Shown piece by piece: positions 3-56,159 of a DNA stretch of 64,000 bases (positions are counted from its first letter, which is position 1; each line of letters opens with the position of its first letter). The notes under the pieces were generated by a model, which searched no databases, had not been told where the DNA came from, and saw only the letters and a program-made list of their open reading frames with translations. The position numbers were made by a program, and so were the translations under genes. The stretch comes from Candidatus Babeliales bacterium (GTDB lineage: Bacteria > Babelota > Babeliae > Babelales > JANWKD01), in NCBI GenBank assembly GCA_963762115.1, contig CAVXJH010000003.1, forward strand, positions 416,001 to 480,000, written 5' to 3'.

Positions 3-623
3 ACAAAGGCTATTTTCCCTGAACAATTACCTGCCAATATAAAAATATTTTTGTATCAAAATTTTATTAAGGAACTAATGCCTTTTTATACAAATGATAA
101 GAATAAAATAGACTTAAGAAATAATCCTTTATCTGCCGATGCTCATGAAAACATTAAAAAAGCCTTAATTCCACCGTTTTTTAAAAGAAACCGACATCAT
201 TTATATTTTTTTAAAGAAGCCTCTAAATCATTTTTATTTAATAGTTTAACTGGCGCAGGAATATCTACATGCTTTATTTGGGCACCTATAGGAATTATTC
301 GATCTTACAAATCTGAATATCCGGCCCCAAATACAATTACACAATCTATACTTTTCCATATATTGTTAGGCACAGTAAGCCCATCGTTTTACCTCTTTTT
401 AAAAACAGAACAGCTTTTGGGATTCGGAAATTCACCTTCATCAGCACATAAACATTTTTTACAATTTGTTGATAAATATGCTCTTGCAAGCAGCTTAATT
501 ATAGGAACTACATCTATTGCTTGGAAACTTTATAAAAATGAATTAACTGAATACAAAAAACACAAATACGTTCCAACAGCAAAGATTTTTACTGGTGACT
601 TCGATGAAAGTGCAGGCATATGA
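3..623 (+). CDS. LRR + C-terminal transmembrane protein, 5'-truncated by window; paralog of 620..2059
   Basis: Frame open from position 3; IDLRNNPLSADAHENIKKALIPPFF and AKIFT match the downstream paralog. Confidence 0.8.
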   Translation, partial: TKAIFPEQLPANIKIFLYQNFIKELMPFYTNDKNKIDLRNNPLSADAHENIKKALIPPFFKRNRHHLYFFKEASKSFLFNSLTGAGISTCFIWAPIGIIRSYKSEYPAPNTITQSILFHILLGTVSPSFYLFLKTEQLLGFGNSPSSAHKHFLQFVDKYALASSLIIGTTSIAWKLYKNELTEYKKHKYVPTAKIFTGDFDESAGI

Positions 624-2059
624 ATAAAAAAATTAGAATACTTCATTTTTTGATTCTAGTTTTTGCTTTAGCAAATATTTCGTTCTTACAAAGCATGAGA
701 CATCAAATAGTTCATGCATCTCCTGATGAAAAAATTATCGAAGATTATCATGGCACCATTTTTACCGTGCCTGCTTCAACAATAGAAAAGTGTGGTGGAT
801 TTTTTCAAACCCTTGCTGATTTTGATACCTTTTATTTTGAAACATCAGATATTTGGGATCAATTATTTAGTAGAAGATTTCCTAAAAGCGATATCAGTTT
901 TTTTCAAACGAAGGCAGCAGATACCCCTCTTTCAAAAGAAATTTTAAAAGCTACCTTTGAATGCATCACACCATTTTTTGAAGAAGTTAAATTACCTGAA
1001 GAAAAAAGTGAAAAAATTAAAGCGATAATCGAATCAATTGATAAGGATCACATTCGATCAATTTTTTCTGTAATAAATTATCTTGGCCCCCAAAAAGAAA
1101 AAGTAGCTAAAAAATTAGCTCAACGAATGAAAGCGATAATTCCATACGATGAATTAAAAGAAGATAATGAAATTGATGTTATTGTTTTATCGGGAATATA
1201 TGATAAAACAATACAAAAACTCCTTAAAAGGAAAAATCAATGGGGATTTTATAACCAACGGGTAGCCCAAGCTTTAGAGCTTAAAGGAATGAAGCTTGAC
1301 AACTTGAAAGGAATTGAAAAGATAACAATTGAAAGTGTTAGGCTATTATATCTTAACGATAATGCATTAAGAACACTTGATATTGCGTATCTAAAAAAAA
1401 AATTTCCAAAACTTACTTACATCAATGCAAGCAATAACTGCATTACCACTCTCATTCTTCCCTCTAAATTACAAGAGCGTTTAACCATCGAACTTAAAAA
1501 CAATTTAATTAAAGAACTGCCTACCTTTTCATTAGATGGTGATTGTACAATTAACCTAAAAGGTAATCCTTTATCAGAAGATGCCCATAAAAAAATTAGA
1601 AAAGCATTAACACCACCATTTTTTATAAAAAATAGGCATCATTTAATTTTTTGGGCAAATAACGCAGGATATTTAATACGCGGAGTATTCTTTGGTGGAC
1701 TCATTGGAATGCCATTAGGAACATCACTAGCAACTCTCTATTATTGCCCACGTACAACAATAATAGCAGGTATAGCACTTGGCTTGAGCGCATCCACTTC
1801 ATCAACAATAGCCCAAGCCATTCCTTATTTTATGATTGCTCCTTACCTGGCAATAAGGCTTAATCTTGACCCTGAGTTTTCAAATCATTGTACTGGCTTT
1901 GTACCATTTGTTCATAAATTTACTTTAGGAAGCAGTTTGGCCTTAGGATTTATTTCACTCATAAGTGAAACGAAAAATATTGCACGAGACTATGAACGAA
2001 ATAAATACATTCAACGAGCAAAAATTTTCACTGATGCCGATGATTCTGCAAAAAATTAA
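620..2059 (+). CDS. Secreted Skp1/BTB-like + leucine-rich repeat + transmembrane protein
   Basis: Signal peptide; LRRs (LRLLYLNDN-type: VRLLYLNDNALRTL, LTYINASNNCITTL, IELKNNLIKEL); hydrophobic C-terminus; ATGA overlap with previous gene. Confidence 0.75.
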   Translation: MNKKIRILHFLILVFALANISFLQSMRHQIVHASPDEKIIEDYHGTIFTVPASTIEKCGGFFQTLADFDTFYFETSDIWDQLFSRRFPKSDISFFQTKAADTPLSKEILKATFECITPFFEEVKLPEEKSEKIKAIIESIDKDHIRSIFSVINYLGPQKEKVAKKLAQRMKAIIPYDELKEDNEIDVIVLSGIYDKTIQKLLKRKNQWGFYNQRVAQALELKGMKLDNLKGIEKITIESVRLLYLNDNALRTLDIAYLKKKFPKLTYINASNNCITTLILPSKLQERLTIELKNNLIKELPTFSLDGDCTINLKGNPLSEDAHKKIRKALTPPFFIKNRHHLIFWANNAGYLIRGVFFGGLIGMPLGTSLATLYYCPRTTIIAGIALGLSASTSSTIAQAIPYFMIAPYLAIRLNLDPEFSNHCTGFVPFVHKFTLGSSLALGFISLISETKNIARDYERNKYIQRAKIFTDADDSAKN

Positions 2060-2076
2060 ACAATAAAATTCAGTTA

Positions 2077-5612: not shown

Positions 5613-6054
5613 CTTAACATTTTAAGGAAATACGATGAATATTCAAAAAAACACTTTTATGTGGGCACTATTGATAGCTAACTTACTCTTTAATATGCCA
5701 ACTTTACTTAAAGCAGACATGCAAAACACTGAAGAAGCATTAAATAGCTTTGAAGAAACCTTGAACGCAGGCCACGAACAAACAAAATGCATAATGGAGT
5801 GTTTTTATAAACATCAAAAAGAATCAGATAAAATGGAATGTACAATGTGTTCACAAGAATGTGAAATGGCATATTTAAAAAAAATTATAGCAATTCAGAG
5901 AAAAAAAAATGAAGCTCTTCAGCAAAATAAATCTGATAAATCTAACTAACTTAACGTTTTAAGGAAATACGATGAATATTCAAAAAAACACTTTTATGTG
6001 GGCATTATTGGTAGCTAACTTGCTCTTTAATATGCCAACTTTACTTAAAGCAGA
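5613..6054 (+). repeat. ~105-bp direct repeat (5613..5717 / 5950..6054) covering RBS and signal peptide
   Basis: 4 mismatches counted by eye between the copies. Confidence 0.9.
5635..5949 (+). CDS. Small secreted twin-CX3C protein
   Basis: RBS AAGGA, signal peptide, CIMEC-x15-CSQEC. Confidence 0.75.
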   Translation: MNIQKNTFMWALLIANLLFNMPTLLKADMQNTEEALNSFEETLNAGHEQTKCIMECFYKHQKESDKMECTMCSQECEMAYLKKIIAIQRKKNEALQQNKSDKSN

Positions 6055-6307
6055 AAATAAAGAAACAAAAGAATATGATGAGCTACACAGTTCACTTGAA
6101 GCATTAAAAAATGATATAAAGGCATGTAAAGATGTTTCAGGGGAACTAGAACTTGTACTGAGTGCACACTTAGAAAAAGCATTTTGCAATCTTGAATGCG
6201 CATCTAAAAAACAAGATAAAACAATATGCCAGAACAAATGTGAAGTTGAACATTTAAGAAAAATTGTACATTTTTGGCAAAATAAAGTTAATAATTCTAA
6301 CAAATAA
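5972..6307 (+). CDS. Small secreted twin-CX3C protein, tandem paralog
   Basis: Near-identical leader to 5635; CNLEC-x9-CQNKC. Confidence 0.75.
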   Translation: MNIQKNTFMWALLVANLLFNMPTLLKAENKETKEYDELHSSLEALKNDIKACKDVSGELELVLSAHLEKAFCNLECASKKQDKTICQNKCEVEHLRKIVHFWQNKVNNSNK

Positions 6308-8590: not shown

Positions 8591-11607
<3,017 letters not shown>

Positions 11608-11740: not shown

Positions 11741-12700
11741 ATGAAATCACTATTTCTTAAAGGTTTAAACCTGTTATTTGCAGTTGCACTCTTTGCAACA
11801 ATAAATACATATGCAATGGAACAACAAGAAGAAGTTGCAGAGCCTATTTCTGCTCAAGCGCAAACTGATAATGTTATTGAACGTATGTATAATGCTTTTA
11901 GCAAACAACTTGATGAAAGATTTCCAGAAGCACCTACAAATTTTTATGAAGCAATTGTACGCCTTCAAAGCATTGCAAAATTACTTGAAAAATCTGAGAT
12001 TGAACTCTGTGAAAATTTCAACGCTACACAAGAAAGTTGTATAATAAATGGCATTGAACAACCATATCATATGCTTCATCCAATTTTTAAACATTGGTTT
12101 CAAAGCGCTTGCAACAAAACTCTTCTTGAACATACAAAATCTATTGAAGCAATTGATCTAATATTTGATTTATTAAGTAAAATAACAACAGAGAACAATA
12201 TCGAAAATTACAAAAAAGCAATTGAATCTTTGCCCCATGTTATTGCTGAATATATCAAAGAAGAATTTATTGAAATGCATGGCTGGAAATATAAAAATAA
12301 AGGCTGGCTGACTGACTTTAAACCTCAAATGACTTTTGATGATAATGAAAACATGATAAATGTCGAATTTATTAAAGATAATTATCATGTTCGTGGATAT
12401 TATTTGAAAGCAATCGATCAACCAATAATCGTTGTAATTAATTTAAATAATGGAACATATCCCTATATGGCGTTTAACGCTCATGCAACATTACCACCAA
12501 TGCTTTCAGACCTTTTGAACAATTTTTTTCATATTCCATTACCAGAAAGCGGTGTTTACCCTCCACTTTGGGAAAAACCAACATTTGAACAATCATTAAA
12601 AAATTGTATCCAAGAAAACGCTAAAACATTAATAGGAAAAATAAAAAGACAAATCCAATCAACATTTTATTCTTTTAGCGAATTTATGGATCGATTTTAA
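11741..12700 (+). CDS. Secreted putative effector, domain-B family
   Basis: A|MEQ leader; PTNFYEAIVRLQ...QPYHMLHPIFKHWF...PPLWEKPTF shared with next gene. Confidence 0.8.
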   Translation: MKSLFLKGLNLLFAVALFATINTYAMEQQEEVAEPISAQAQTDNVIERMYNAFSKQLDERFPEAPTNFYEAIVRLQSIAKLLEKSEIELCENFNATQESCIINGIEQPYHMLHPIFKHWFQSACNKTLLEHTKSIEAIDLIFDLLSKITTENNIENYKKAIESLPHVIAEYIKEEFIEMHGWKYKNKGWLTDFKPQMTFDDNENMINVEFIKDNYHVRGYYLKAIDQPIIVVINLNNGTYPYMAFNAHATLPPMLSDLLNNFFHIPLPESGVYPPLWEKPTFEQSLKNCIQENAKTLIGKIKRQIQSTFYSFSEFMDRF

Positions 12701-12749: not shown

Positions 12750-13712
12750 ATGTATATGAAATCACTATTTTTTAAAAGGTTAACACCTTTATTACTCACC
12801 GTTACACTCTTTGCAGCAATAAATATACAAGCAATGGAACAAGAAGAAGGACAAGAACCTTTTTCTGCTCAAGAACAAAGCGCCAATGCCGATAATGTTG
12901 TTGAACGTATATATAATGCTTTTAGCAAACAACTTGACGAAAGATTCACAGAATCACCTACAAATTTTCGCGAAGCAATTGCACAACTCAGATGTATTGC
13001 ACGATTACTTGAAGAATCTGAAGTTGAACTTCTTGAAGATTTCAACGTTACACAAGAAAACTGCACAATACATGGTATTAAACAACCATATCATATGCTT
13101 CATCCAATTTTTAAACATTGGTTCAAAAATGCTTACGAAAAAATCCTTCTTGAACATCCAAAAGTTATTGAAGCTGCTGATGTAATTCTTGAAAGATTAA
13201 GTGAAAATGTTTCTCATGAAAATATGAATAATTATGATAAAGCAATTACAAATCTGCCAAAAATTGTTACTGAATGCATCCAAGATCAATTCATTGATAT
13301 ACATGGTTGGCCACACAATATAAAACCCTCAATCACATTCAATGATTCGGGAGTAAAGCACATTTCATTTCTTCAAGATAATTATGTTTTTGAAGGATTT
13401 GGAACTGGTTGGATACATAAAACACGGTCACAACAAAGTCATTTAGAAAATATCAATAATAATCCTTCAGCATGGCTTAGCCGCAGCTCTACATTGGTTG
13501 ATGGAAAATTAGCAACAGGAATTGCATACGAATTAGGATTAGCTGAAGAAATAAACGGAGATATTAAACCATTAAAAGCCTCTAATGATAAAGAAGAACC
13601 AAGTGGTGTATTACCACCTCTTTGGGAAAAACCAACATTTAAAGAAGCTCTTAAAAAACGAGCTGAAGAAAATAAATTAAAGAAAAATAGAAATAGATGT
13701 ATTATAAGTTAA
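12750..13712 (+). CDS. Secreted putative effector, domain-B family, C-terminal CaaX (CIIS)
   Basis: Paralog of 11741; ends KLKKNRNRCIIS*. Confidence 0.8.
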   Translation: MYMKSLFFKRLTPLLLTVTLFAAINIQAMEQEEGQEPFSAQEQSANADNVVERIYNAFSKQLDERFTESPTNFREAIAQLRCIARLLEESEVELLEDFNVTQENCTIHGIKQPYHMLHPIFKHWFKNAYEKILLEHPKVIEAADVILERLSENVSHENMNNYDKAITNLPKIVTECIQDQFIDIHGWPHNIKPSITFNDSGVKHISFLQDNYVFEGFGTGWIHKTRSQQSHLENINNNPSAWLSRSSTLVDGKLATGIAYELGLAEEINGDIKPLKASNDKEEPSGVLPPLWEKPTFKEALKKRAEENKLKKNRNRCIIS

Positions 13713-13755: not shown

Positions 13756-15624
13756 ATGAAATTATATATTAAACAGGGCAAAAAGGCCTTATTACTTTCT
13801 CTCGTATTATTTACCGGAATCACACTCAATGCAATGGAACAACAAGATAAGCCTGAATATAGTTCTTTCGTTGATAATCTAGAGATAGTACTAAAAAGAA
13901 ATAACAAACAACTCTGCGCAAAGCTTCTTCATCATTTCAATGAAGAAATTGAACAAAAAGAAGTAATTGAACAAGTTTCTATAGTTGCAAATTTAATACC
14001 ATATGCTGCACAAAAAAGTAATCAAGTAACCTCTGTACTTTGCAATGCACTGGTAAAAATTGTCCAGGCTAACGACTCATTAGCCTCAATAATTAAAGAA
14101 AAGATAAATCCTGTTATTCACACTTTAGTAGCACACCAAAGAAAAAAGGCTTTAAAAAAACTTCTTTGTATATTTGCTGATAACACTGAATCGGAAGAAT
14201 ATACAAGGATTAATCAAATTATACAAAGTAAGTTACAAAAAGGATTAACCGTATTTAATCCAGAAGAAAATTCTACCACAAAAGAAGCACTAAAATATAT
14301 TTATTCTACTATTGATTTGATACAAGAATCGATATCAAACCCACAACGCACAGTAATATTCTGCAATATGTTGCTAGGTCATTTTATTAGCCAAGAAAAA
14401 AATTTCAGAACAGACATGCAAAAAATTATTTCTCCAATCATTCATCCTCTAATTCAAGCTAATAACATTGAAGCATTAAAACAAATTCGATATATTTTCT
14501 CTGATTTTAAAGATAAAGATACACAAGAATACAAAATCATACATAAAGCAATTAAAAAATATAATTCAGTAATAAAATCCAAGCAAAATGAACAGCTTGC
14601 AAAATTATCAGAAAAAAGTCCTCATGAAAAAGTTGCAACTGAAGATAACGATCAAGAATTAAACTTTGCTCGCACTGTTAGTACAAGGGAAACTACCAAT
14701 CCAAGTGCGACTACTTTTGAAAATCCAATTGATTTTATGAGATTACAAAAGGAATCTGCTGAACTTACTGGTGTTCCGCTCTCAGATGAAGAAGCTGATG
14801 CATTTTTGATTAGAATTTTAGAAGAACACATCGACAATCACCCTTCTTGCAAGAAAATACCAAAAACATTTTATGAAGCTTTAGTGCGTCTTCAATGCAT
14901 TGCTCGTTTGTTTGATAAAACTCGCTTTTATATAGGTGATATGGAAATTACAGAGAATGATTGTGTGATTAATAACTTAGTTCTTCCTCATCATATGACA
15001 AATAAAAGATTTAAACAGTGTTTTGATATTGTCAAAAATCGAACCGTACTTCTTTCCCATGAAAAATCTGTTGAAGCAATAAATATCATTCTTGAAAGCA
15101 TCAGTAAAAAAGTAAAACCAGAAACGGCAGCCGAATATATAAAAGCAATTAATTGTTTACCCTCTTTTTTTTCTCATAACATTAAAAAGCAATTTAATAG
15201 AATGATGTATCAAGAATTATATAATATTCCTTTGATAACAACGGGTTTAAATTTTATTGGTTCGTTTGTTAATTATGACATAGTAAAAACCAAAATTAAA
15301 CCTTATGAAGTTATCTTCGATGAAGAAGACAGGATAACATCATTCAAATTTAAAAAATCTGGAATTAACGTTGAAATATCTAACATACATTGGATAGGAC
15401 AGGATCCTTGGGGTAAAGCAGTTATGGGAAGTGAAACATGTTATGGTACTGATCTAAACAATTTACACACTCTTCTAAATAGAAAATTTGAGGGACGAGC
15501 AACATATTTTGATGAAAACGACTTTATTTGGCGACTAAATTTTGAAGAAATGTTACAAAAACGTGCTCATGAAAATGAAAACAAGACACAAGAAAAGCAA
15601 CAATCAAAATGCATTATAAGTTAG
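13756..15624 (+). CDS. Secreted mosaic putative effector (2x domain A + domain B), C-terminal CaaX (CIIS)
   Basis: Internal repeat (CNAL/CNML...INPVIH/ISPIIH...EEY/QEY); PKTFYEALVRLQCIARL; ends QQSKCIIS*. Confidence 0.8.
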   Translation: MKLYIKQGKKALLLSLVLFTGITLNAMEQQDKPEYSSFVDNLEIVLKRNNKQLCAKLLHHFNEEIEQKEVIEQVSIVANLIPYAAQKSNQVTSVLCNALVKIVQANDSLASIIKEKINPVIHTLVAHQRKKALKKLLCIFADNTESEEYTRINQIIQSKLQKGLTVFNPEENSTTKEALKYIYSTIDLIQESISNPQRTVIFCNMLLGHFISQEKNFRTDMQKIISPIIHPLIQANNIEALKQIRYIFSDFKDKDTQEYKIIHKAIKKYNSVIKSKQNEQLAKLSEKSPHEKVATEDNDQELNFARTVSTRETTNPSATTFENPIDFMRLQKESAELTGVPLSDEEADAFLIRILEEHIDNHPSCKKIPKTFYEALVRLQCIARLFDKTRFYIGDMEITENDCVINNLVLPHHMTNKRFKQCFDIVKNRTVLLSHEKSVEAINIILESISKKVKPETAAEYIKAINCLPSFFSHNIKKQFNRMMYQELYNIPLITTGLNFIGSFVNYDIVKTKIKPYEVIFDEEDRITSFKFKKSGINVEISNIHWIGQDPWGKAVMGSETCYGTDLNNLHTLLNRKFEGRATYFDENDFIWRLNFEEMLQKRAHENENKTQEKQQSKCIIS

Positions 15625-15662: not shown

Positions 15663-16499
15663 ATGAAATTATTTATAAAACAAGGTAAAAACACCTTATT
15701 ACTTTCTCTCGTATTATTTACCGGAATCACGCTTCAGGCAATGGAACAACAAGGGAGCGAATACGGCTATTTAGTTGATACTCTTGATGCAGCAATGAAA
15801 TCATCAAATCCCACTGCTTGCAAAGATCTTTTCGAAAGCTTTAGTAATGATCTTAACCAAAAAGATCCAATCGAACGAGCTGCTATTGTTGTTGGCTTAA
15901 CACAAGAAGCAGCAGCGAAAAAAAATGAACAATTAACAGGGGTATTTTGCAATGCACTCGTTAGTATTTATAACACTAGCCCCGGAATAACAGAAGCAAT
16001 GCAAGAAATAATAAGCCCTGTCATTCGTCCTTTGGCAGAGCACAAACAAATATCAGCATTGGGAAAAATTCACTGTATTTTTTCTAACAATATTGAAAGC
16101 GAAGAATATAGACAAATTGATGAAGCAATTAAAAATAAATTGCACGGTAATACAACAGTAAATACTGATGAAGATGAAGCAATTGCAAGATTATTACAAG
16201 AAGAAGTTCAAAGTCCTGATGACAATTTTGCACCTAAAGATAACGATCTCAACAGGGCACTAGCATTAAGTTTACAAACAGGCAGACAAGATGACGAACA
16301 AGCAGAATTAGAAAAAGCACTGCGTGCAAGCAGATTTACCAACCCTAGCGCACCCGTACTAACAGACATCGAAGAAGATGATGCAGTATTACGTATTGCA
16401 CTCGCAGAAAGCTTACAAGTAAACACACCAAATACCAACTCAAATCCAAGCATCTGGAACAATCTCCGCAACATATTTTTAGACGGCTTTGGTAGTTAA
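15663..16499 (+). CDS. Secreted putative effector, domain A + tandem ubiquitin-interacting motifs
   Basis: ATG 15663 after AGAAGGGA; DNDLNRALALSLQ, DEQAELEKALRASR, EEDDAVLRIALAESLQ. Confidence 0.8.
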   Translation: MKLFIKQGKNTLLLSLVLFTGITLQAMEQQGSEYGYLVDTLDAAMKSSNPTACKDLFESFSNDLNQKDPIERAAIVVGLTQEAAAKKNEQLTGVFCNALVSIYNTSPGITEAMQEIISPVIRPLAEHKQISALGKIHCIFSNNIESEEYRQIDEAIKNKLHGNTTVNTDEDEAIARLLQEEVQSPDDNFAPKDNDLNRALALSLQTGRQDDEQAELEKALRASRFTNPSAPVLTDIEEDDAVLRIALAESLQVNTPNTNSNPSIWNNLRNIFLDGFGS

Positions 16500-21907: not shown

Positions 21908-23425
21908 ATGAAAAAAATAATAATAACTTTTTTTATAATGCTTTTTACCCTGCCAAGTATCTTCGGCATGGAAGAAGATCAATCAAATAAGCGACAAGAA
22001 ATAGGATATTTAGAAGCCGCAACTCAAGCAGCGGCTACTCCTAAATTACGCCTTAAACAGCATTTTAAGAGCCTAAAACATCGCTGCTTAGATCAGGTTG
22101 CTTCAACTACTACTCAAAACATTGATACCAACAGCCCTCTTGAAAGTAAGCCAATGCTTGAAGAGCTACAAAATAGTATGCCCGAAGAGCTTTATAGTGA
22201 ATTACTCATTCACTTAGAAAAAGGCACACAACCAATATGGACACAAGCTGCTTTCGTACGAGGTAAGCTTAAAGCCCATAAAACTATTAATAACGGCAGC
22301 AATGTTGCCTTTCTTGATACTTATTTTAAGATTGATCCTGCTCAATGCCATTACATACCTCTTAAACATTCCCGAATGACTCTTTCTAAAGATTTTACTT
22401 TTATCAATAAAGTTAGATTTTTAGCCTCCGCACAAACAAGCAATTATATTGCTTTAGCTAATGAAGGCGAGCTTACTTTGTGGAACACAGAAAATGGCAC
22501 AGAAAGTTTTATACCGATCTGCAATACCCCTATGAAGCATTCGCAAAAGATACTTTCACTCCTTGAAGATGAAGAATTAACAACATTAACTTTTTCTGCC
22601 GATGGAACATCATTAATCCTTGGAACTGATAAAGGTCGATGCATTTTCATTAATAACATCACACAAAATCTAGATTTTGATACTCCTGAATATCGCCCTT
22701 ATTTTTCTTCAGCGATTACCGCATTAACCTGTTCTCGCGATGGAGAATATCTTCTAGCGGCAAATGATGAAGGAACCATAGTACTCTCTGAAAAAGAAAA
22801 TAACTATGCTACTGCGCAACAAGTCCCTATAAATGTGCCAAAAAACAAATTCATTCGCGGTATCATCATATCACCTGATAACAGTATTATTGCCTGTAAT
22901 GCAGATGAACAAGAATGTTATTTTTATCATACAACCTTAGAAAAAACCGTTTGTTATCCAAGATCACATTTTTTTGATATTGATAACGATAATTTAGCTC
23001 TCACCCGCGTTTTTGATAACAATCACAACTTTCTTGCGTATCTAGAAATAAATTTCACCACTGAAATTGCTGACATTAAAAAGGCATTTATTTTACCAAA
23101 AAACACTCAATTATGCCCAACCAATAAACACATGCCCTCATCATCAGCTCCTTGCCTTCTTGATATTGACCCAGATGAAGAAGAAACAACATGCATTCTT
23201 AAACCAAAAAGACCTGATATTGATGAACTGCTGTTCAAATTGGCTGTGCAAAAATGTAATAACTCACCAAATAAAGCTGATCTTTTAGCAGAATTAGTAA
23301 AAAATAATTTGAACCATGTTGCAACATTTGAAGGAATTCATGGGTCAACACAATCAAATTTATTAGAAGAATATATTAAATACTTACAACAACCTGCACA
23401 AGAACAACAACCCGCACAAGAATAA
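21908..23425 (+). CDS. Secreted BC-box + WD40-like beta-propeller protein
   Basis: G|MEE leader; SLKHRCLDQV; LTFSADGTSLILGTDKG, ITALTCSRDGEYLLAANDEGTI, IIISPDNSII. Confidence 0.75.
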   Translation: MKKIIITFFIMLFTLPSIFGMEEDQSNKRQEIGYLEAATQAAATPKLRLKQHFKSLKHRCLDQVASTTTQNIDTNSPLESKPMLEELQNSMPEELYSELLIHLEKGTQPIWTQAAFVRGKLKAHKTINNGSNVAFLDTYFKIDPAQCHYIPLKHSRMTLSKDFTFINKVRFLASAQTSNYIALANEGELTLWNTENGTESFIPICNTPMKHSQKILSLLEDEELTTLTFSADGTSLILGTDKGRCIFINNITQNLDFDTPEYRPYFSSAITALTCSRDGEYLLAANDEGTIVLSEKENNYATAQQVPINVPKNKFIRGIIISPDNSIIACNADEQECYFYHTTLEKTVCYPRSHFFDIDNDNLALTRVFDNNHNFLAYLEINFTTEIADIKKAFILPKNTQLCPTNKHMPSSSAPCLLDIDPDEEETTCILKPKRPDIDELLFKLAVQKCNNSPNKADLLAELVKNNLNHVATFEGIHGSTQSNLLEEYIKYLQQPAQEQQPAQE

Positions 23426-27498: not shown

Positions 27499-27984
27499 AT
27501 GAAAAAAATTATGTATATACTTTTACTTGGATTCACCTTCAATGGTCTTTTTGCCATGGAAAATACAGCTGAAGATGCAGCTATTGCAGACCTTATTGAA
27601 AAAATATCAAAAAATGAACCCCAAAAAGATTTTAACAATGATATTCAAACAGATTTAAACAAACTTGAAGATGATATCAAACGCGCAGAAGAATATCATG
27701 CACAAGAAAAAGCATTCCAGGCAAAAGAAGAAGAAAAAGCCAAAGAAGCTGCTGCGTTATTAGAATTAATCGCACAGGAATCTGCTGAACAAAAAAATCT
27801 TGAAACTGCTCCAATTACATCAAAGGAAACTGAAGCGCAAGTTGCTCAAGACATCAAACAAGATGAAACGCTAGAAGAATTAGAAGCGCTCAATAAAACT
27901 GAACAAGAAATTCTCCAAGAACCAGCGTTGCAAAACGATGTTCAAGAGGCTTTAGAAAAAACTGAAGATATTGAATTATCTTAA
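27499..27984 (+). CDS. Secreted acidic coiled-coil protein (A|MEN leader)
   Basis: ATG 27499 after AAGGA; E/Q/K-rich. Confidence 0.75.
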   Translation: MKKIMYILLLGFTFNGLFAMENTAEDAAIADLIEKISKNEPQKDFNNDIQTDLNKLEDDIKRAEEYHAQEKAFQAKEEEKAKEAAALLELIAQESAEQKNLETAPITSKETEAQVAQDIKQDETLEELEALNKTEQEILQEPALQNDVQEALEKTEDIELS

Positions 27985-28063: not shown

Positions 28064-28687
28064 TTATGCGTTATTTGTAACCACAGATGCATTAGACATG
28101 CCTGCAATAACCGCTGCACTTATATCAGAAACTAATTTTTTTTCTAATTCTGCACTATCTGCTTTCCAACCTGCAATCGTTTCTTGCCATGATGCATTCG
28201 TATATTGAGAATGCAAAACAGTAGAAGCAACAAGCGCAAAAAACATCAAAGCTACCCCACCAAATGCAAAAGTAGCAGCGCTATGATCTAAACCATTAAT
28301 TCTATTAAGTAATCTCACAAAACCACTTCTCCAAGGTTTAACATCTTCGTCAATGAATTTAGCTTTAATATATTCAATACGAGATTGCCCATCTAAAGGT
28401 CCAGTAACGTCATCTTGATAAACAGTATCTTTTGGTTCACCAAACTGATTCAAATCATTCTTTGCAATCCAAGCTTCAATTGCTTTTTCTTCAAGAAGAT
28501 TATACAAATTTGCTGGATTCAATAGAGTTCCTGCAATAAAAGCCGCAACACCTGCTCCACCCAAAACAAAGAATGGCATCAGATTTGGCTTTTCAACAAC
28601 AGCATATGATGAAGCATTATGCATTGCAAAGATAATCAAAATAGCCGCTAAAAAGTTCTTTTTAAACTTTTGTTGTACATTTACCAT
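28064..28687 (-). CDS. Signal peptide + two-TM membrane protein
   Basis: ATG 28687 after AGGGGA; soluble loop IEAWIAKNDLNQFGEPKDTVY...RIEYI...PW between TM helices. Confidence 0.7.
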   Translation of the reverse strand: MVNVQQKFKKNFLAAILIIFAMHNASSYAVVEKPNLMPFFVLGGAGVAAFIAGTLLNPANLYNLLEEKAIEAWIAKNDLNQFGEPKDTVYQDDVTGPLDGQSRIEYIKAKFIDEDVKPWRSGFVRLLNRINGLDHSAATFAFGGVALMFFALVASTVLHSQYTNASWQETIAGWKADSAELEKKLVSDISAAVIAGMSNASVVTNNA

Positions 28688-28879
28688 AAAAAAATCCCCT
28701 ATAAAAATCAAAGAAATGATACTATAAAACATTTCAATTATAGGGCAAACCGAGATTTTTTCAATTCTTTTATTTTCTTTAAGAAATGGCCATAGTAATC
28801 ATTCCAAGTATTCAGTGATTATTCTTAACAGAAAATCAACATAAAAAATAACCTAATGATCAAATATAACGACCAATGA

Positions 28880-35888: not shown

Positions 35889-36317
35889 CTAATTATCAGA
35901 TTCTGATTCGGATACAGGTTCAATATATACAAACTTATCATCGAAATATACTCTTGAATTTCCAGGGGCAGTGAATGTAGCAGGTTTCATCATGTAACGC
36001 CATATCCCATAACCCAAAGCAGTAACACCAGCCAAAAGACTCGAATCACGGATCATTGGTCCCCATATTTCAGGATCTTCATGAAATTTATTGGCAATAT
36101 GATATATAACACCGCCGATTGTTGCGCAAATCATACCGGTTTTAAACACCGAAGCAACCGCTTCTTGCGTATTCATGTTATTTTTTTGTTTAATTTTTTT
36201 TTCTATAAAACTTGAAGATTTCTTTTTTTGGCCTGCTTCATCCATTGAAAAACTTTCAGAAGCAACAAACAAAATAACAAAACACATTATAATACTGTAA
36301 TACAAATTTTTAATCAT
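35889..36317 (-). CDS. Secreted/two-TM hypothetical protein (S|MDE leader) between sufC and sufB
   Basis: ATG 36317 after GGAG, 1 nt past sufC stop. Confidence 0.7.
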   Translation of the reverse strand: MIKNLYYSIIMCFVILFVASESFSMDEAGQKKKSSSFIEKKIKQKNNMNTQEAVASVFKTGMICATIGGVIYHIANKFHEDPEIWGPMIRDSSLLAGVTALGYGIWRYMMKPATFTAPGNSRVYFDDKFVYIEPVSESESDN

Positions 36318-41975: not shown

Positions 41976-42848
41976 TTAATAAACCCATTGAAAAAACCTA
42001 CTCCAACGAACACGTTGCCAAAAATCAATTGGATGTTTGATTAAATCAAGAATCCACCATGATTCATGGCTATCAATTGACCACAAGCGCACAATAATTT
42101 TGCCATGAATCAATTTACCGTCAAGTGGTCCCCAAAAACGCGAATCATAGCTTCCCAACCGATTATCACCCATCGCCCAATATTGATTTGAATCCAACGT
42201 GATATCAAAAATATCAACATTCCTACCATATTGATCAAAGGAGGGAGTTTGAGGTAACCGTAACCAATCTTGATCATATGTCTTTGACCAACGCTTCCCA
42301 AGCTCAACGTCATACTCATCCATTCGATAAAAAGGCTGATCATTAAATGAAAAATTTTCATCGTAGGAAGAATGCAATAGGCATTTATTATTATAAACAG
42401 CAATAAGAGGATATTTATTTAAATAAGGTTCATCTAATTTTTCCCCATTACGATAAATAACCGGCTTTCCATCTTCAATTACTCCTTTAATATGATCACC
42501 AGGAAGACCAATCACTCGTTTAGTCCAATTAGAAGGTCCCCAAACATAACGTTGAAAAACGTCCGTAAAATAGTTATGAGAATAATTAAAATTGGGATCA
42601 TTAAAAGTAATAATATCGCCATACTTGATTGGTCGAAATAAATATGAAAATTTATCAGCAAAAAAACGTTCACCAACTAACATGGTTGTTTCCATTGAAC
42701 CCGTTGGCACTTGATACAGACCATAAAAATAAGTGCGAATAAAAAAGGCAATTGGCACAATAATAAGAAAAGATTCTATATATTGAGCAATTTTTGATTT
42801 ATGAGGACGTTTAAGCCAAACACGAAACTTATTAATAAATTCTAACAT
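41976..42848 (-). CDS. lepB: Signal peptidase I, copy 2
   Basis: VPTGSMETT, WTKRVIGLPGD, MGDNRLGSYDSRFWG. Confidence 0.96.
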   Translation of the reverse strand: MLEFINKFRVWLKRPHKSKIAQYIESFLIIVPIAFFIRTYFYGLYQVPTGSMETTMLVGERFFADKFSYLFRPIKYGDIITFNDPNFNYSHNYFTDVFQRYVWGPSNWTKRVIGLPGDHIKGVIEDGKPVIYRNGEKLDEPYLNKYPLIAVYNNKCLLHSSYDENFSFNDQPFYRMDEYDVELGKRWSKTYDQDWLRLPQTPSFDQYGRNVDIFDITLDSNQYWAMGDNRLGSYDSRFWGPLDGKLIHGKIIVRLWSIDSHESWWILDLIKHPIDFWQRVRWSRFFQWVY

Positions 42849-42871: not shown

Positions 42872-43744
42872 TCAAGATACTCTTTGAAGAAACCGATTCC
42901 ATCGAATACGTTTCCAAAAATCAAGGGGATGTTTGATCAAATCAAAAATAAGCCATGATTCATTGCTATCAATTGACCATATTCTAAAGACAATCTTTCC
43001 ATGTATCAATTTACCATCAAATGGACCAAGAAATCGTGAATCTTTGCTTCCCAGTCGATTATCACCCATACACCAATATTGATTTGGCGCCAAGTGAACA
43101 TCAAAAATATCAACATTTCTTCCATAGTGATCAAACGAAGGCGTTCCCGGCATTAATAACCATTCTTGGCCATACATATCTGACCAACGTTTTCCTAATT
43201 CCGCCTCATAGTCATTAAAACTATAAAATGGTTGATCACTATATGAATAAGCTGGGTCATAAGAACGTGGCGCTTGGATGCGATTATTTTTATATAACGT
43301 AATAAGAGGAAATTTGTTTAAATATGGTTCATCTAATTTTACATCATTGCGATATACAACCGGTTTTCCATCTTCAATAACGCCTCTAATATGATCACCT
43401 GGAATACCAATAACACGCTTTGTCCAATTAGTAGGACCCCATACATAGCGCTGAAACAAATCAACCCAATAATTATCAGAATATATAAAAGTAGGATCAT
43501 TAAGAGCAATAATATCGCCATGCTTTATTGGTATAAATAAGGGCGTAAATTTATCTGAAAAAAAACCCTCCCCAACCAATATCGTTGTTTCCATTGAACC
43601 CGTCGGTACTTTATAAAGTCCATAACCAACCGTTCTAATAAGAAATGCAATCGGCAAAATAATAATGAAGGTTTCAAGATATTCTGCAACGATAGATTTA
43701 TTCGGTCGTTTTCGCCATTGATGAAATTTTTGAACGAGTGTCAT
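42872..43744 (-). CDS. lepB: Signal peptidase I, copy 1
   Basis: VPTGSMETT, WTKRVIGIPGD, MGDNRLGSKDSRFLG. Confidence 0.96.
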   Translation of the reverse strand: MTLVQKFHQWRKRPNKSIVAEYLETFIIILPIAFLIRTVGYGLYKVPTGSMETTILVGEGFFSDKFTPLFIPIKHGDIIALNDPTFIYSDNYWVDLFQRYVWGPTNWTKRVIGIPGDHIRGVIEDGKPVVYRNDVKLDEPYLNKFPLITLYKNNRIQAPRSYDPAYSYSDQPFYSFNDYEAELGKRWSDMYGQEWLLMPGTPSFDHYGRNVDIFDVHLAPNQYWCMGDNRLGSKDSRFLGPFDGKLIHGKIVFRIWSIDSNESWLIFDLIKHPLDFWKRIRWNRFLQRVS

Positions 43745-44726: not shown

Positions 44727-45426
44727 ATTCTAAAGCGTCAGTCTTAAGCCAGCCTGATTGATGATCACGGCTTACTTTGCACCATGCACCTCGCTTTTCA
44801 TGTATTACGACTTCTTGTCCTCTTGCTATCTTTCCTCGTTTACTAAATTGCTCATCAGTACCAACAAACAATAACGCTTCTTCATTTTTTATGATTCCAC
44901 GCTCCTTAGAAAGCAAAAAAACTTTTAAGGTGAGCCCAGAACTTATAACGCCCTGAGGCAGCAAGAGAAATAAGAGCCAAATTTTTTTACGCAAAGATCT
45001 AACCCAACATAATCCAAATAAAAGTATATACCAAGATAACAAAAACAAAAACTGCCATAATCCAATTGAATATGACTGTACCCAATTTTCACACGCGTTT
45101 AAAATTTTATTTTTATGTGTTGCTTCGATCCGTAATTTCTCGGCTGCTTTTTGGCAATTGTGCTCAATGGGTAATCCTACACAGCCCCTATTCTCAGCTT
45201 TTCGCCAATAAATAAGCGCTGAAACATAATCTCCTATACGATACCAACAATTACCCATATTATATAAAACAATACCACTTTTCGGTTCAATTTTTTCATA
45301 TAAATGTAATGCTTGTTTATATTCTTTTTGCTGATATGCAGCATTTGCTTGCAAAAAGAATTCTTCATAATTAGCAGAACAAAAAAAAGGAATCAAAACA
45401 AAAAAAATTATATTCAACATCATCAT
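44713..45426 (-). CDS. batE: BatE-like TPR + TM + SH3 protein
   Basis: ANAAYQQKEY, YNMGNCWYR, C-terminal WCKV...GWL; operon position. Confidence 0.8.
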   Translation of the reverse strand: MMMLNIIFFVLIPFFCSANYEEFFLQANAAYQQKEYKQALHLYEKIEPKSGIVLYNMGNCWYRIGDYVSALIYWRKAENRGCVGLPIEHNCQKAAEKLRIEATHKNKILNACENWVQSYSIGLWQFLFLLSWYILLFGLCWVRSLRKKIWLLFLLLPQGVISSGLTLKVFLLSKERGIIKNEEALLFVGTDEQFSKRGKIARGQEVVIHEKRGAWCKVSRDHQSGWLKTDALEYVSC

Positions 45427-47135
45427 AATTTTTCTTCCAGTTGCTTAAGCCAAATTTCAGCTCGTTTAACTAATTCTGCATCTATTTTTGTTTTATTTTT
45501 TGGCATAAAAGCAGCCTCTTCAAGCTTATGAAAAAAGCGACGCCATTGTTCAATTACATCATGAGAAAATCCTACGTGGTTCAATTTCGCTTCGATAACC
45601 TCGGCAGTAAGATCTGATAAAGATAGTTGCAACCGGTCAGCAAATAAATTCATAAAAATGTCATAGAGCGAAAACGATATCATAGTTGTTTTGTTATTAT
45701 TTTTGAGCTGCTTTTTGGCATGCTTAAAGGCATATTTTTTCGTTAAATACTGTTTATGAATGTTTCTGTATTCAGAGATATACATTCCTGCAAAATAATA
45801 GCAACAATACAAAAGTGGTAACAACGTTGCTAGTAAAAACCAAAACCATGATAACGATCGTTCTTTTTTTAATAACCAAGATCCAGTTACCTGTAAAGGA
45901 AAAATATCATCCTCATCAAAATCAATTACAACAGGTCCATCTGGTTTTATTATTTGCTCATTTTTAATCAATTGATTAGGCGTAATGATAATTGGTAAGG
46001 GCTTCGTTTTTAACATCTCAAATACTTTTGTTTCTGTATTAAAAAAAGTAAATACCTGCTCAGGAATCTCATAAGAACCCGGTTTCATCCCCTGCACAAT
46101 ATATTCAAAAGATTTTTTATAATGAGCCACACCATTTTGATGATTAATCATTTTTGACTCATAATATTTTAAACCATCTTGAATAACTAAATGGGGTGCT
46201 TTAATTTCATCTAAATTAGTTTTACCTTCCAGCATTAATGTCAACACCATTCCTTCACCCACATGAGCTTTTTGTTGATTAAGAGTTGCACTAAAATGGG
46301 AAAAAACACCAATGGCATCAAGAATGCCAGCATGATAGGGCAAAGGATCAATAACGAGAGAGAGATCATTAGAAAAATAATTTTGTGGCGGTGAACCAGC
46401 ACCCAATCGATGCAGCATCGCGCTAAAAAAGTCTTGCGATCGTTCTTGCTTATTAAGCAATTTACACTGCGCCCTGAATGGTGGAATGATAAGCGTACCT
46501 ACTTTATTCAATGTTAACTCCGCATGCCACTCTGCATATTCATACATAACGTTGTCAATGGTGACCGTTCCCCGGTCAATCTGCTTTAATTCACTTAAAC
46601 TACCCATTGATGGATCTAATTTAGGTTGTTCGATAGACATAAGTTCAGTTGGCACGCGCGTATTTAACCGAACACGCACAACGATTTTTTCACCAATAAC
46701 CGCTCGATCAACACTAGTCGATAACTGCACAATAACATCCTGCTGTTGTTCTTGCACAACCGAAAAGGAAAGAACATTTGACTTACGAGTAGTTCTTCTT
46801 TCACCAATCATATGCGCTGGCCCAATAACATAGGTACCTATCGTATCAGCTCTAATTACATACGTATGTTGTGTCGTAACTTTCGACATCATAGTAAGGC
46901 GACTTGCTCCGCGAAATTCATGATGCAACGCATTAAGACCTGGTATAACAAGCTTGTGCAAATCCTGATTACCATCAGCTTTTATTTCTAGCAAATAAGA
47001 AACACCGCGCATTAACTCTTGCACCGAATGTCCGTTCATATCCGTAACATTCAGCGTTAATACATCGGTGCGAGCAAATACATTTGCAAAAAAAACCGTT
47101 ATTAAAAAAAATATTTTACCAATTTTTTTGACCAT
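45423..47135 (-). CDS. batD: BatD-like protein
   Basis: Signal peptide from ATG 47135; GTYVIGP, DPLP...AIGVF, FEYIV...PGSYEIP...FFN; TM. Confidence 0.85.
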   Translation of the reverse strand: MVKKIGKIFFLITVFFANVFARTDVLTLNVTDMNGHSVQELMRGVSYLLEIKADGNQDLHKLVIPGLNALHHEFRGASRLTMMSKVTTQHTYVIRADTIGTYVIGPAHMIGERRTTRKSNVLSFSVVQEQQQDVIVQLSTSVDRAVIGEKIVVRVRLNTRVPTELMSIEQPKLDPSMGSLSELKQIDRGTVTIDNVMYEYAEWHAELTLNKVGTLIIPPFRAQCKLLNKQERSQDFFSAMLHRLGAGSPPQNYFSNDLSLVIDPLPYHAGILDAIGVFSHFSATLNQQKAHVGEGMVLTLMLEGKTNLDEIKAPHLVIQDGLKYYESKMINHQNGVAHYKKSFEYIVQGMKPGSYEIPEQVFTFFNTETKVFEMLKTKPLPIIITPNQLIKNEQIIKPDGPVVIDFDEDDIFPLQVTGSWLLKKERSLSWFWFLLATLLPLLYCCYYFAGMYISEYRNIHKQYLTKKYAFKHAKKQLKNNNKTTMISFSLYDIFMNLFADRLQLSLSDLTAEVIEAKLNHVGFSHDVIEQWRRFFHKLEEAAFMPKNKTKIDAELVKRAEIWLKQLEEKL

Positions 47136-48137
47136 GGCGACTCGGCATCTGTTGTTGAATTTGTCTTTTAAACAATGCTTTCGACATCTGTGCATCATGC
47201 TGCTCAACTAATTGTAGTAACATTGTTTCTTTATCAGTAGGTTCTTGTGAAACCTGTTTATCATTTGTACCATCATTTTTTGCCTCTTGCAATGCTTCTT
47301 GCGCGTGGTTTTGAGATGCTTGATTTTGACATGCAGCTTGCTCGTCTTGTTTTTCTTGAGCCGATTGTTGATCTTGCGATTGCGCTGATGATCGATCATC
47401 AGAAGCATTTTTTTGATTTTCAAAATTATTTTTTTTGTTTTGAGCATCATTACTTGCATCAGATTTCTCTTCTTTATCTTGCTCATCACGCTGCTTAGGA
47501 TCTTGATTTTGCTTATTGCGCTCATTCTCTTTTTTTCTTGTTCGGATGAAGAATCTTGTTTTTGTTCTTGAGATTGTTCATCATCATTTTGATTATCTTG
47601 TTGCTTATCTTGCTTATTTTTATCGGTATCTTTTTTATCAGAATGATCATCATTATCGCTCTTTTGATCTTTTTTATTCTCATCAGATTCTTTTTTTTGC
47701 TGATCTTCTTGTTGCTTTTTTTCTTCAAGAATTTTTTTTATCTGATCAATCATCTTTTGAGCATATTCATTATCCGCATTTATTTTTAACACTTCTTCAT
47801 AACTTGCTAAAGCATCTTCCCACTGCTGCATATGTACTTGGCTCAAACCACGATCATACCATGCTTGCTCTCGTAATGACGCTGACGCTGTTTTTGTTTG
47901 CGTTACAAGATTAAAATATGCAACAGCTTTAACAAACTCTTTTTGTTTTAAGGCAACTTTACCAAGATTATAAGCAACTTCGGCATTATCTGGTTCCTGT
48001 GTAAGCATTTCATCAAGTAAATACTGCGCTTGCTGCATATCACCTTGTTTATACGCATTTTGCACACGATATTTTTCAAAATAACATTGCATCGTGCCAG
48101 TCATTGTTATAAATAACAACACAATCATTTTTTTCAT
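47116..48137 (-). CDS. batC: BatC-like TPR protein with -1 frameshift at A7 (47530..47536)
   Basis: TPRs then Q/D/K linker; shifted frame continues the linker and ends HGQKNW*, overlapping batD start. Confidence 0.8.
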
Positions 48138-50130: not shown

Positions 50131-50137
50131 ATGATTA

Positions 50138-50860: not shown

Positions 50861-50869
50861 AAAAACAAC

Positions 50870-54777: not shown

Positions 54778-54857
54778 AAAAAACCTTGTTATTATACCAT
54801 TAAAATATACATTATAATTATAGTAAAAAATAAAAAAATATAATACGTTATTGAACC

Positions 54858-55484: not shown

Positions 55485-55559
55485 AAATAAAATTGCAAAA
55501 ATATCCGGATTGTTTTATTTTTACAGCAATTACCACAATACAATAACATAGGAACGCAT

Positions 55560-55808
55560 ATGAATCTGAAAAAAATATTGTATCTTCCCTTATACGGATT
55601 CATTTTTATGTTTTCTTTGGATGCTATGCATCAACGAAAAATAACTAATACTATAACAAAAAAAACAAAAGAATTAGCCGATTTAAACAAAAAAACCGAC
55701 TCAGAATGTTTGCAATTTCTAGGACAACTAAATTGTCTCAATTGTTGCTGCAATGGTACATTTTATGGTATTATTTCATTATTAAAAATCCCATCACAAC
55801 TTCAGTAA
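55560..55808 (+). CDS. Small secreted Cys-cluster protein (A|MHQ leader)
   Basis: AGGA RBS; basic stretch then CLNCCCNG and hydrophobic tail. Confidence 0.6.
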   Translation: MNLKKILYLPLYGFIFMFSLDAMHQRKITNTITKKTKELADLNKKTDSECLQFLGQLNCLNCCCNGTFYGIISLLKIPSQLQ

Positions 55809-55823
55809 CAAGCGAAAGATAGT

Positions 55824-56159
55824 ATGAAAACAAAAAAAATTATTTTATTATTATCAATCATGATTCTTCAGTTTTTTTCTCACATTGATTGCATGCAACA
55901 ACGAAAAAAATCTCCAAAAGACAATCAATTAACAGCAAGACAAATAAATAATAAAGAAAAAAGAAAACACAGACGTCAACAAGAAAAAGACTACTTAAAA
56001 CAAGTAGAAAAAAATGAAACTGCATGTGACCCTCTCTGTTGTCTTATATGCCCTATAGCTAATTGTGGAGTCTTTGTTGTAATGGGCTTACTAGGTTGTG
56101 CAGAATATTTACAAACAAATGATATAACAAATAATCTATTTAATGGAACACAATCATAA
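55824..56159 (+). CDS. Small secreted Cys-cluster protein (C|MQQ leader)
   Basis: Polybasic stretch then CDPLCCLICPIANC and hydrophobic helix. Confidence 0.65.
   Translation: MKTKKIILLLSIMILQFFSHIDCMQQRKKSPKDNQLTARQINNKEKRKHRRQQEKDYLKQVEKNETACDPLCCLICPIANCGVFVVMGLLGCAEYLQTNDITNNLFNGTQS

Follow-up and report, generated by a model that had tools for sequence, protein, structure and literature searches.

A Met-acidic residue pair directly after the predicted signal peptide in a large protein class of a Dependentiae bacterium

Introduction

Why would mostly unrelated genes of one bacterial locus encode ordinary secretory leaders that end, by prediction, directly before a methionine? The question is raised by a 64,000-nucleotide stretch of a Candidatus Babeliales genome (assembly GCA_963762115.1, contig CAVXJH010000003.1, positions 416,001 to 480,000), referred to throughout as the window. 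A sequence-only reading of this stretch had listed 13 N-termini at which a predicted signal peptidase I site is followed at once by Met and, in most cases, Glu. The 13 proteins were taken as a class of otherwise mostly unrelated secreted proteins, and cleavage was proposed to create either a eukaryote-like N-terminus or a sorting tag for a second export step. The source genome (G000; 1.53 Mb, 34% G+C, 7 contigs, the window lying on contig C3) belongs to the Dependentiae (TM6/Babelota), widespread and almost uncultured parasites of protists. Its traits match those given in the accessible portions of two papers on the phylum: the genome is small and encodes two secretins, and numerous ankyrin and WD40 proteins bear signal peptides (PMC4378268, PMC4776705).

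Genomes and site prediction

The 1,405 genes of the source genome were called de novo with a crude caller of our own. N-termini were flagged as signal-like if they combined a Lys/Arg n-region, nine consecutive residues averaging 2.0 or more on the Kyte-Doolittle scale and an uncharged stretch of 12-32 residues, a rule that yields an over-inclusive set of 605. Cleavage sites were then predicted by this hydrophobicity rule together with a weight matrix over positions -7 to -1, trained on the Met set itself (not by SignalP); +1 denotes the first residue after the predicted cut. For comparison, 60 genomes of the phylum were sampled, all placed in the same order and in families f2-f13, with the source genome alone in f1. 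The same script was applied to partial sequences of relatives (58-200 kb), which are not mutually independent. The outgroup comprises 1.4 Mb, made up of 79 rpoB neighbourhoods from other phyla, and 50 kb of E. coli.

Methionine at the predicted junction

In 148 of the 605 signal-like N-termini of the source genome, where Met accounts for 2.2% of all residues, the uncharged stretch ends with Met, directly before the first charged residue; the dipeptide is Met-Glu in 122 of the 148 and Met-Asp in 16. The same count gives 12/410 in ten low-Met relatives and 0/51 in the outgroup. The Met pattern is far beyond chance, and the expectation that Met at +1 would prove enriched over background is borne out.

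The anatomy of these sites is of the classic Sec/signal peptidase I type. Met falls at position 16-30 of the protein; residue -1 is Ala (65), Gly (38), Ser (24), Cys (13) or Thr (4) in 144 of the 148, and residue -3 is Leu (50), Ser (24), Ile (18), Ala (15), Val (11) or Thr (11) in 129. Of 251 other good sites identified by the weight matrix, 45 also have Met, here followed by an uncharged residue (Gln 21, Asn 12, Ser 4, His 4, Thr 3). The final classification puts 189 proteins in the Met class and 145 with a good site outside it; a further 32 and 47, respectively, have later membrane segments, and the rest are 13 lipobox candidates and 179 weak cases. The assignment is heuristic and subject to errors in both directions in mixed paralogue clusters, at an estimated rate of roughly 5-10%. 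About 190-220 proteins of this genome are predicted to carry a Sec-type signal peptide cut directly before Met.

The residue that follows is also constrained. Position +2 in the 189 Met-class proteins is Glu in 104, Gln in 24, Asp in 12, Asn in 11, His in 9, Ser in 8 and another residue in 21; Met-Glu/Asp/Asn/Gln, the set anticipated for the new N-terminus, covers 151 of the 189 (80%), and other residues account for 38. Information amounts to 1.59 bits at +2, falls to 0.2-0.3 bits at +3 to +6 and is at background beyond, so the constraint is essentially one on +1/+2. Glu codons at the junction occur in the ratio GAA:GAG = 102:20, the same as in the genome, which places the constraint at the level of the protein; a nucleotide-level element at the junction was rejected on this ground. 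Codon choice at -1 of Met-class sites is skewed: Gly is encoded by GGC in 23/38 cases (26% of Gly codons genome-wide) and by GGA and GGG once each, and GCT is under-used for Ala (9/65, vs 33% genome-wide).

Neither of two other signal types describes the class. A lipobox (Cys at +1) with an acidic motif is absent from it, the 13 lipobox candidates of the genome having been classed apart. The features of a type IV prepilin-like signal are likewise lacking, in that the hydrophobic stretch precedes the cut, the mature start is polar and Glu stands at +2 (at +5 Glu is the commonest residue but reaches just 27/189).

The leader and the start codon

A Met that recurs near the N-terminus might be a true or alternative start, with the leader either untranslated or part of a second isoform. 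Where the second residue prevents removal of the initiator Met, translation from this ATG and cleavage before it would yield one and the same N-terminus, and one database homologue (P0021) is annotated as beginning at the Met, although gene callers can misplace a start at an internal Met, as in this very entry. Shine-Dalgarno-like motifs (GGAG, GAGG, AGGA or AAGG at -18 to -4) place initiation elsewhere: of the 189 genes, 111 have one ahead of the leader start and 1 has one ahead of the +1 Met codon; the corresponding frequencies are 40% for non-signal genes and 7% for in-frame ATGs within genes (+1 Met vs internal ATGs, p=4e-5). The leaders have full n/h/c anatomy and begin with ATG in 124/148 cases. 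Among 795 non-signal proteins, native starts most commonly read Met-Lys (145/795), whereas Met-Glu is found in 26/795 (3.3%); because native Met-Glu is this rare, neither a real nor a fossil start predicts Glu at +2. The start-codon explanation, which the sequence-only reading had named as one that would overturn it, is largely refuted, and we give it almost no weight.

Conservation of the junction in homologues

Three families permit the junction to be followed into relatives. The protein encoded at C3:571077-571655 (192 residues) has 15 homologues, of which 12, at 47-78% identity, read A/G|Met-Glu and one, at 33% identity, reads A|Met-Asp, giving Met at the junction in 13/15; the remaining two (35-36% identity) have signal peptides without Met (A|Ser-Asn, A|Val-Asp). 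Met-Glu holds its place in the alignment, whereas the linker behind it varies and contains gaps of 1-5 residues. This family (P0002-P0017) is restricted to uncultured relatives and combines a conserved domain of ~90 residues (…DPLLR.LKHKQLKKFQK.GYI.VKK…) with an invariant GGG motif, after which comes a hydrophobic tail rich in Gly, Ala and Val and of highly variable length. The window protein starting at 30180 has 7 relatives among 1.84 billion representatives, and in all 5 homologues whose N-terminus was read Met is retained (Met-Glu 4, Met-Gln 1), down to 29% identity and with unrelated residues following. The sole homologue of the methyltransferase starting at 31992 (58% identity) retains G|Met-Glu. 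Retention of Met to 29-33% identity in three families, while flanks and linker length vary, argues for purifying selection.

A comparison of two close f2 genomes (G001 and G003), read by eye, points the same way, with Met retained in 7/8 orthologue pairs and replaced in the other by a Met-Asp to Asn-Glu swap. The signal peptide exists with or without Met, and these alignments argue that Met is held by selection where present, though not absolutely.

Which proteins carry the junction

Grouping by similarity of the mature regions separates the 213 Met-class proteins that have no more than one later membrane segment into 159 clusters, 130 of them singletons; an explanation of the class by a few expanded paralogue families was rejected on these counts. 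Homologues in the sampled relatives were found for 14/213 Met-class proteins vs 39/190 others, and the few Met-class matches are mostly non-orthologous ankyrin hits.

Domain content was compared by a Pfam scan of loci covering 302/403 target genes, including 150 of the 162 Met-class proteins in scanned loci, 132 non-Met proteins and 8 lipobox proteins. A Pfam family is present in 49/150 Met-class proteins: ankyrin in 15, WD40/beta-propeller in 12, weak C2H2 fingers in 5, M48 peptidase in 3 and DnaJ in 2, with single matches to Skp1_POZ, PvcA, a CPT-like kinase, HAD, GT10 and fasciclin (the Met call of the last looked false on inspection) and weak matches to leucine-rich repeat (LRR) and ubiquitin-interacting motif (UIM) families. 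In the other set 52/140 have a family (88/140 have none). Many of these are enzymes, ankyrin and WD40 number 2 and 1, and 11/140 belong to classical envelope or periplasm families (ABC_sub_bind, OmpH, S49, PAP2, Amidase_3, FKBP, a PBP1-type transglycosylase, SBP_bac_3, thioredoxin, M23 and OmpA). Ankyrin or WD40 domains thus occur in 27/150 Met-class proteins vs 3/140 others (Fisher p=4e-6), and classical envelope families in 0/150 vs 11/140 (Fisher p=3e-4), as expected if the class is associated with eukaryotic-like domains and not with housekeeping periplasmic proteins.

Two J-domain proteins and one Skp1/POZ-like protein (Table 1) also have the arrangement of signal peptide and Met. The partners of such proteins, Hsp70 and cullin-type ligases, are here presumably host proteins, available only in the eukaryotic host. 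Signal-like N-termini are present as well on several usually cytoplasmic enzymes (DNA polymerase I, ATP-dependent DNA ligase, a MutS-like protein, transketolase, DeoC aldolase and a histone-deacetylase-family protein; Table 1), where they may be membrane anchors, real export signals or start-codon artefacts.

Lineage distribution

The rule is lineage-restricted within the order, being strong in f1, f2 and most of f3. Two figures describe each genome, Met as the last uncharged residue and Met at the best matrix site, and they are 25% and 37% in the source genome. All three f2 genomes show the rule strongly (G001 11/63 and 6/32; G003 11/40 and 9/23; G002 5/21 and 5/13). Values within f3 are higher in G005 (13/73 and 9/38, mostly Met-Asp), G013 (4/32 and 7/22) and G049 (5/43 and 6/31), and lower in G020 (1/40 and 4/21), G018 (0/26 and 3/11) and G027 (0/48 and 1/26). 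In the other families (f4-f9, f11-f13) Met reaches 0-11%, the ten low genomes pooled above giving 2.9%. The outgroup yields 0/51 and 1/19; the E. coli segment alone contains 4 signal-like proteins, none with Met. Low-Met relatives have Ala, Ser or Gln at +1, followed by Asp, Glu or Lys. A tree of RpoB fragments sets f7, f11, f12 and f13 apart from the rest and leaves f1-f6, f8 and f9 without a resolved order, 11/21 inner branches being open. The RpoB fragment of a 6.5-kb contig labelled 'uncultured Pseudomonadota bacterium' (CAYSAX010000067.1, L171) is 71% identical to that of G005, compared with 51-52% for its next-best matches, which come from real Proteobacteria and Acidobacteria; the contig seems to be mislabelled.

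Processing and secretion genes

The predicted enzyme for the cut before Met is signal peptidase I (LepB), encoded in the window by two tandem copies that adjoin the Bat operon and are the only Peptidase_S26 genes of the genome. Several relatives have such tandem pairs and others one copy. Two secretins and two GspF-type genes are found elsewhere in the genome. In the accessible text of the Babela paper, type II secretion is the sole system detected, and 79/126 ankyrin proteins have signal peptides (PMC4378268). An acetyltransferase of the GNAT family with a signal-like N-terminus (G000:C7:49313-49849) recurs in 49/61 genomes, including all sampled members of f2, f4-f6, f8 and f9 and 23/25 of f3. 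The same query gave no match in f7 or f10-f13, a split that coincides with the deepest one in the RpoB-fragment tree.

The window

All 13 N-termini listed from the window have the translations reported for them. Nine have a strong site of the signal peptidase I type before Met (matrix scores 2.7-5.6). The sites of the genes starting at 31992, 55560, 55824 and 36317 are weaker, and three of these four genes encode small proteins with a later hydrophobic segment, as judged from translations read by eye. The notion of a class of 13 mostly unrelated proteins stands as regards the class but not its size. Because four of the genes are paralogues (11741, 12750, 13756 and 15663), the 13 form 10 families (BLASTP E<=1e-3), and the class has about 200 members per genome. 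Two additional Met cases lie in the window, one in a gene cut at its 5' end. The observation that envelope proteins here lack the motif also survives, since BatD has a signal peptide without Met, and FKBP, rhodanese and GH1 proteins of the window are likewise without it. Outside the Met class, two tandem small paralogues at 5635-5949 (+) and 5972-6307 (+) share near-identical leaders (MNIQKNTFMWALL[IV]ANLLFNMPTLLKA), followed by DMQ or ENK.

Table 1. Genes of the window and related genes elsewhere in the source genome. Positions without a prefix are those of the window; a vertical stroke in other descriptions is the predicted cut, given here as a slash.
Feature	Position	Strand	Predicted signal peptide	Met and +2 codons	Met codon	Junction	Score	Remarks
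Met-class gene, 3' part	3..623	+				THG/MEEL		starts upstream of window; paralogue of 620
Met-class gene, 479 residues	620..2059	+	620-694	Met-Arg 695-700	695	LQS/MRH	4.7	weak LRR (LRR_4 E=2.7e-4)
Met-class gene, 197 residues	11014..11607	-	11551-11607	Met-Glu 11545-11550	11550	LIC/MEE	5.3	no Pfam family
Met-class gene, 319 residues	11741..12700	+	11741-11815	Met-Glu 11816-11821	11816	TYA/MEQ	4.2	paralogue of 12750, 13756, 15663
Met-class gene, 320 residues	12750..13712	+	12750-12833	Met-Glu 12834-12839	12834	IQA/MEQ	2.7	
Met-class gene, 622 residues	13756..15624	+	13756-13833	Met-Glu 13834-13839	13834	LNA/MEQ	4.4	
Met-class gene, 278 residues	15663..16499	+	15663-15740	Met-Glu 15741-15746	15741	LQA/MEQ	4.1	weak UIM match
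Met-class gene, 505 residues	21908..23425	+	21908-21967	Met-Glu 21968-21973	21968	IFG/MEE	4.0	WD40/beta-propeller (Beta-prop_EML_2 E=2e-8)
Met-class gene, 161 residues	27499..27984	+	27499-27555	Met-Glu 27556-27561	27556	LFA/MEN	5.6	no family
Met candidate	28064..28732	-				IFA/MHN		two later hydrophobic segments
Met-class gene, 592 residues	30180..31958	+	30180-30236	Met-Glu 30237-30242	30237	THT/MEL	2.8	no family
Met-class gene, 291 residues	31992..32867	+	31992-32045	Met-Glu 32046-32051	32046	SLG/MEQ	1.7	class I methyltransferase (Methyltransf_31 E=2e-19); rival site LYA/YSS
Small Met-class candidate, 142 residues	35889..36317	-		Met-Asp 36240-36245	36245	SFS/MDE	1.35	weak site; later hydrophobic segment
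Signal peptidase I (LepB) copy 1	41976..42848	-						Peptidase_S26 E=2e-36; predicted cutter before Met
Signal peptidase I (LepB) copy 2	42872..43744	-						Peptidase_S26 E=2.5e-29; tandem with copy 1
BatD	45423..47207	-				VFA/RTD		signal peptide without Met; contrast within window
Small Met-class candidate, 82 residues	55560..55808	+		Met-His 55626-55631	55626	LDA/MHQ	2.9	
Small Met-class candidate, 111 residues	55824..56159	+		Met-Gln 55893-55898	55893	IDC/MQQ	1.45	weak site; C-terminal hydrophobic segment
J-domain protein	L078:12249-13109	+						signal peptide, then Met
J-domain protein	L082:104-1540	-						signal peptide, then Met
Skp1/POZ-like protein	L065:5260-5832	-						signal peptide, then Met
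DNA polymerase I	L070:15867-18674							signal-like N-terminus
ATP-dependent DNA ligase	L077:134-2008							signal-like N-terminus
MutS-like protein	L074:101-2308							signal-like N-terminus
Transketolase	L081:17587-19566							signal-like N-terminus
DeoC aldolase	L064:104-1123							signal-like N-terminus
Histone-deacetylase-family protein	L094:3634-4722							signal-like N-terminus

Relation to known N-terminal rules

Ankyrin, WD40, other eukaryote-like and orphan proteins of Dependentiae are known to bear signal peptides, which have been taken to indicate secretion into the host, according to the accessible portions of two papers (PMC4378268, PMC6561590). The same portions, and those of PMC4776705, make no mention of a residue rule at the cut. 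No published account of a Met rule at the cut was found in literature searches or in the portions consulted.

The nearest bacterial parallel is the Q-rule of Bacteroidetes, in which, as far as the accessible text goes, Gln occupies +1 in most signal peptidase I substrates and is cyclised to pyroglutamate (PMC5837995, PMC10653852). Both rules are lineage-restricted, and in each a sizeable fraction of the exported proteins have a near-invariant residue right after the signal peptidase I site. The present rule differs in combining Met with an acidic or amide residue, in covering about half of the clear signal peptides and in sparing envelope housekeeping proteins, and no modifying enzyme is known for it. 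Gln is found at +1 in 9/145 non-Met sites of the source genome, which is not a Q-rule pattern. The terms methionine, TM6 and Dependentiae are all absent from the searchable part of PMC5837995.

A second parallel is the lipoprotein export signal (LES) of Bacteroidetes, a negatively charged motif that directly follows the +1 Cys and, in the available accounts, brings lipoproteins to the cell surface and into vesicles (PMC5080379, PMC6222051, PMC10319031). A short acidic motif at the mature start would here, too, decide a step after Sec, and the LES serves as the model for the sorting role favoured below. The LES is borne by lipoproteins processed by signal peptidase II at a lipobox Cys, whereas the sites described here have -1/-3 residues of the signal peptidase I type, no Cys, and Met as the key residue.

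Rules of this kind also exist in eukaryotes. The bipartite plastid-targeting signals of algae with complex plastids follow a +1 Phe rule (PMC3774753, accessible part). As would be the case here, the residue exposed by signal-peptide cleavage decides the next transport step; that step leads from endoplasmic reticulum to plastid and uses an aromatic residue plus a transit peptide, unlike the bacterial envelope and the ~2-6 informative residues of the present class. The motif of the +1 Phe rule is 'ASAFAP'. Cleavage of the Plasmodium export element (PEXEL) leaves an N-terminus whose second residue is Glu, Gln or Asp and which is acetylated and needed for export to the host cell. The PEXEL, unlike the junction considered here, is located beyond the signal sequence, belongs to a eukaryote and is processed by an aspartic protease. 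In phytoplasmas, many otherwise unrelated secreted effector candidates of the sequence-variable mosaic (SVM) type share homologous leaders. The leaders of the Met class, by contrast, are unrelated (one tandem array excepted), and what the class has in common is limited to the two residues that follow the cut.

Explanations for the rule

The explanation that we favour, though we put it at somewhat below even chances, is that of a post-cleavage sorting mark on host-directed proteins. Signal peptidase I would cut an ordinary Sec leader directly before Met-Glu, less often before Met-Gln, Met-Asp or Met-Asn, and the exposed Met-acidic N-terminus would be a short functional mark read by something. 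As a sorting or maturation mark it would most probably be read after Sec export and release proteins from the periplasm: it is missing from envelope proteins and present on proteins with domains that make sense only in a eukaryote, which suggests an action beyond Sec. The sequences establish the anatomy of the leaders, initiation at the leader, a Met class of unrelated, fast-evolving proteins that are eukaryote-like or orphan and do not include envelope housekeeping proteins, the retention of Met in homologues amid changing surroundings, and the restriction of the rule to certain lineages of the order. We infer from them that the cut falls exactly before Met, that the Met-acidic N-terminus is read and that its reader belongs to an export step.

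Several observations weigh against this explanation. Type II secretion genes occur across the phylum in the accessible account (PMC4776705), and low-Met lineages would thus secrete without the mark. Neither of two candidate factors has held up: a dedicated second signal peptidase was rejected because LepB matches do not track the rule (one each in G001 and G003, which follow it, and two each in G041 and G048, which do not), and the exported GNAT acetyltransferase was rejected because it is present in low-Met lineages too. Later membrane segments are found in 32/221 Met-class proteins, which would make these poor type II substrates. Many orphan and a few ankyrin or WD40 proteins have signal peptides without Met, and paralogy inflates the ankyrin/WD40 statistics. 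Nor is the mark obligatory, since some tandem paralogues of the source genome have Ser-Asp or Gly-Val where others have Met-Glu (HS|MEAPPSKK vs YA|SDNAKPKK). Finally, the whole case is built from sequence.

The role proposed in the sequence-only reading lies on the host side: an N-terminus of Met followed by Glu, Asp, Asn or Gln would mimic an untouched eukaryotic start and set stability or interactions in the protist, through the lack of both methionine aminopeptidase trimming and a Met-hydrophobic degron and possibly through acetylation by NatB, whose consensus is Met-Glu/Asp/Asn/Gln. This NatB/N-degron idea fits the sequences, given the predominance of these four residues at +2, the rarity of hydrophobic ones there (Phe 4, Val 4, Leu 1) and the effector-like make-up of a class that includes J-domain and Skp1-like members and no envelope proteins. 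We nevertheless think it unlikely. His, Ser, Lys and Thr at +2 (25/189) fall outside the NatB set, NatB acts mainly on nascent chains, and a literature search by title and start of abstract returned no paper on host NatB acting on Sec-cleaved bacterial proteins. Ala, Ser, Thr and Gly at +1 are equally stabilising under N-degron rules, so these rules do not explain the choice of Met, and low-Met relatives have Ala, Ser or Gln at +1 of their signal-peptide proteins. Because an acidic +2 is favoured by Sec export, Glu or Asp at this position needs no host explanation.

Two further explanations dispense with a reader. One holds that the signal peptidase of these lineages cuts best, or at a single position, before bulky Met plus an acidic residue, and that young, fast-evolving, high-flux proteins drifted to this optimum as old envelope proteins did not; the Bacteroidetes Q-rule offers a comparison. 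Lineage specificity, a constraint limited to P1'/P2' like a protease subsite preference, and the relative youth of the Met class, with its scarcer homologues, are all compatible with this, and Met or Glu, unable to sit at -1/-3, would block slipped cleavage. It is nonetheless an explanation we would bet against, since envelope proteins of the same cell are processed without Met, as are the many orphan signal-peptide proteins among the 88 non-Met proteins that have no Pfam family, and LepB copy number is out of step with the rule. Mature envelope starts are usually free to drift, yet none of the 11 has Met. The other explanation is historical: Met would be a fossil start left by fusion to an upstream signal-peptide module, or a few leaders would have spread by duplication and recombination. 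Paralogous families do share leaders, and the promoter-plus-leader DNA of an array on contig C6 (349-361 kb) recurs, at 74-94% identity over 43-137 nucleotides, in two neighbours of another mature cluster. Outside this array, however, the cross-cluster leader matches inspected (40 of 73) are short and T-rich and just as frequent with non-Met genes (36 Met-Met and 26 Met-nonMet pairs). Glu follows the class Met in 55-82% of cases, far from its frequency at native starts, and Met persists in distant homologues while its neighbours change. Others of these distant homologues have a signal peptide and no Met, so the signal peptide came first or independently. We regard the historical account as quite improbable, and general shuffling of leader modules was rejected, being clear in one tandem array only. 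The array itself (C6, ~349,000-361,500) holds at least 11 paralogues (MKKI[FV]I[IV]LAFIFVGMANA|MQ/ME/MH...), some with weak C2H2 zinc-finger matches, and the two leader-sharing genes are adjacent to it.

Implications

In its fullest form, which we advance more tentatively than the sorting mark itself, a two-residue code of Met plus an acidic or amide residue would route about one in seven proteins from the periplasm into the host, would be read by a receptor yet to be found and would serve as an effector predictor in several Dependentiae families. If true, a mark that separates host-directed from envelope proteins would predict effectors directly for part of the phylum. It would also offer a handle on the export or recognition step, through receptor hunting, cross-genome co-variation and reporter swaps at +1/+2. 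The rule would then join the Bacteroidetes Q-rule as a second example of a lineage that has changed the residue behind its signal-peptidase cut, and it would match, in a bacterium, the PEXEL and the +1 Phe rule of plastids.

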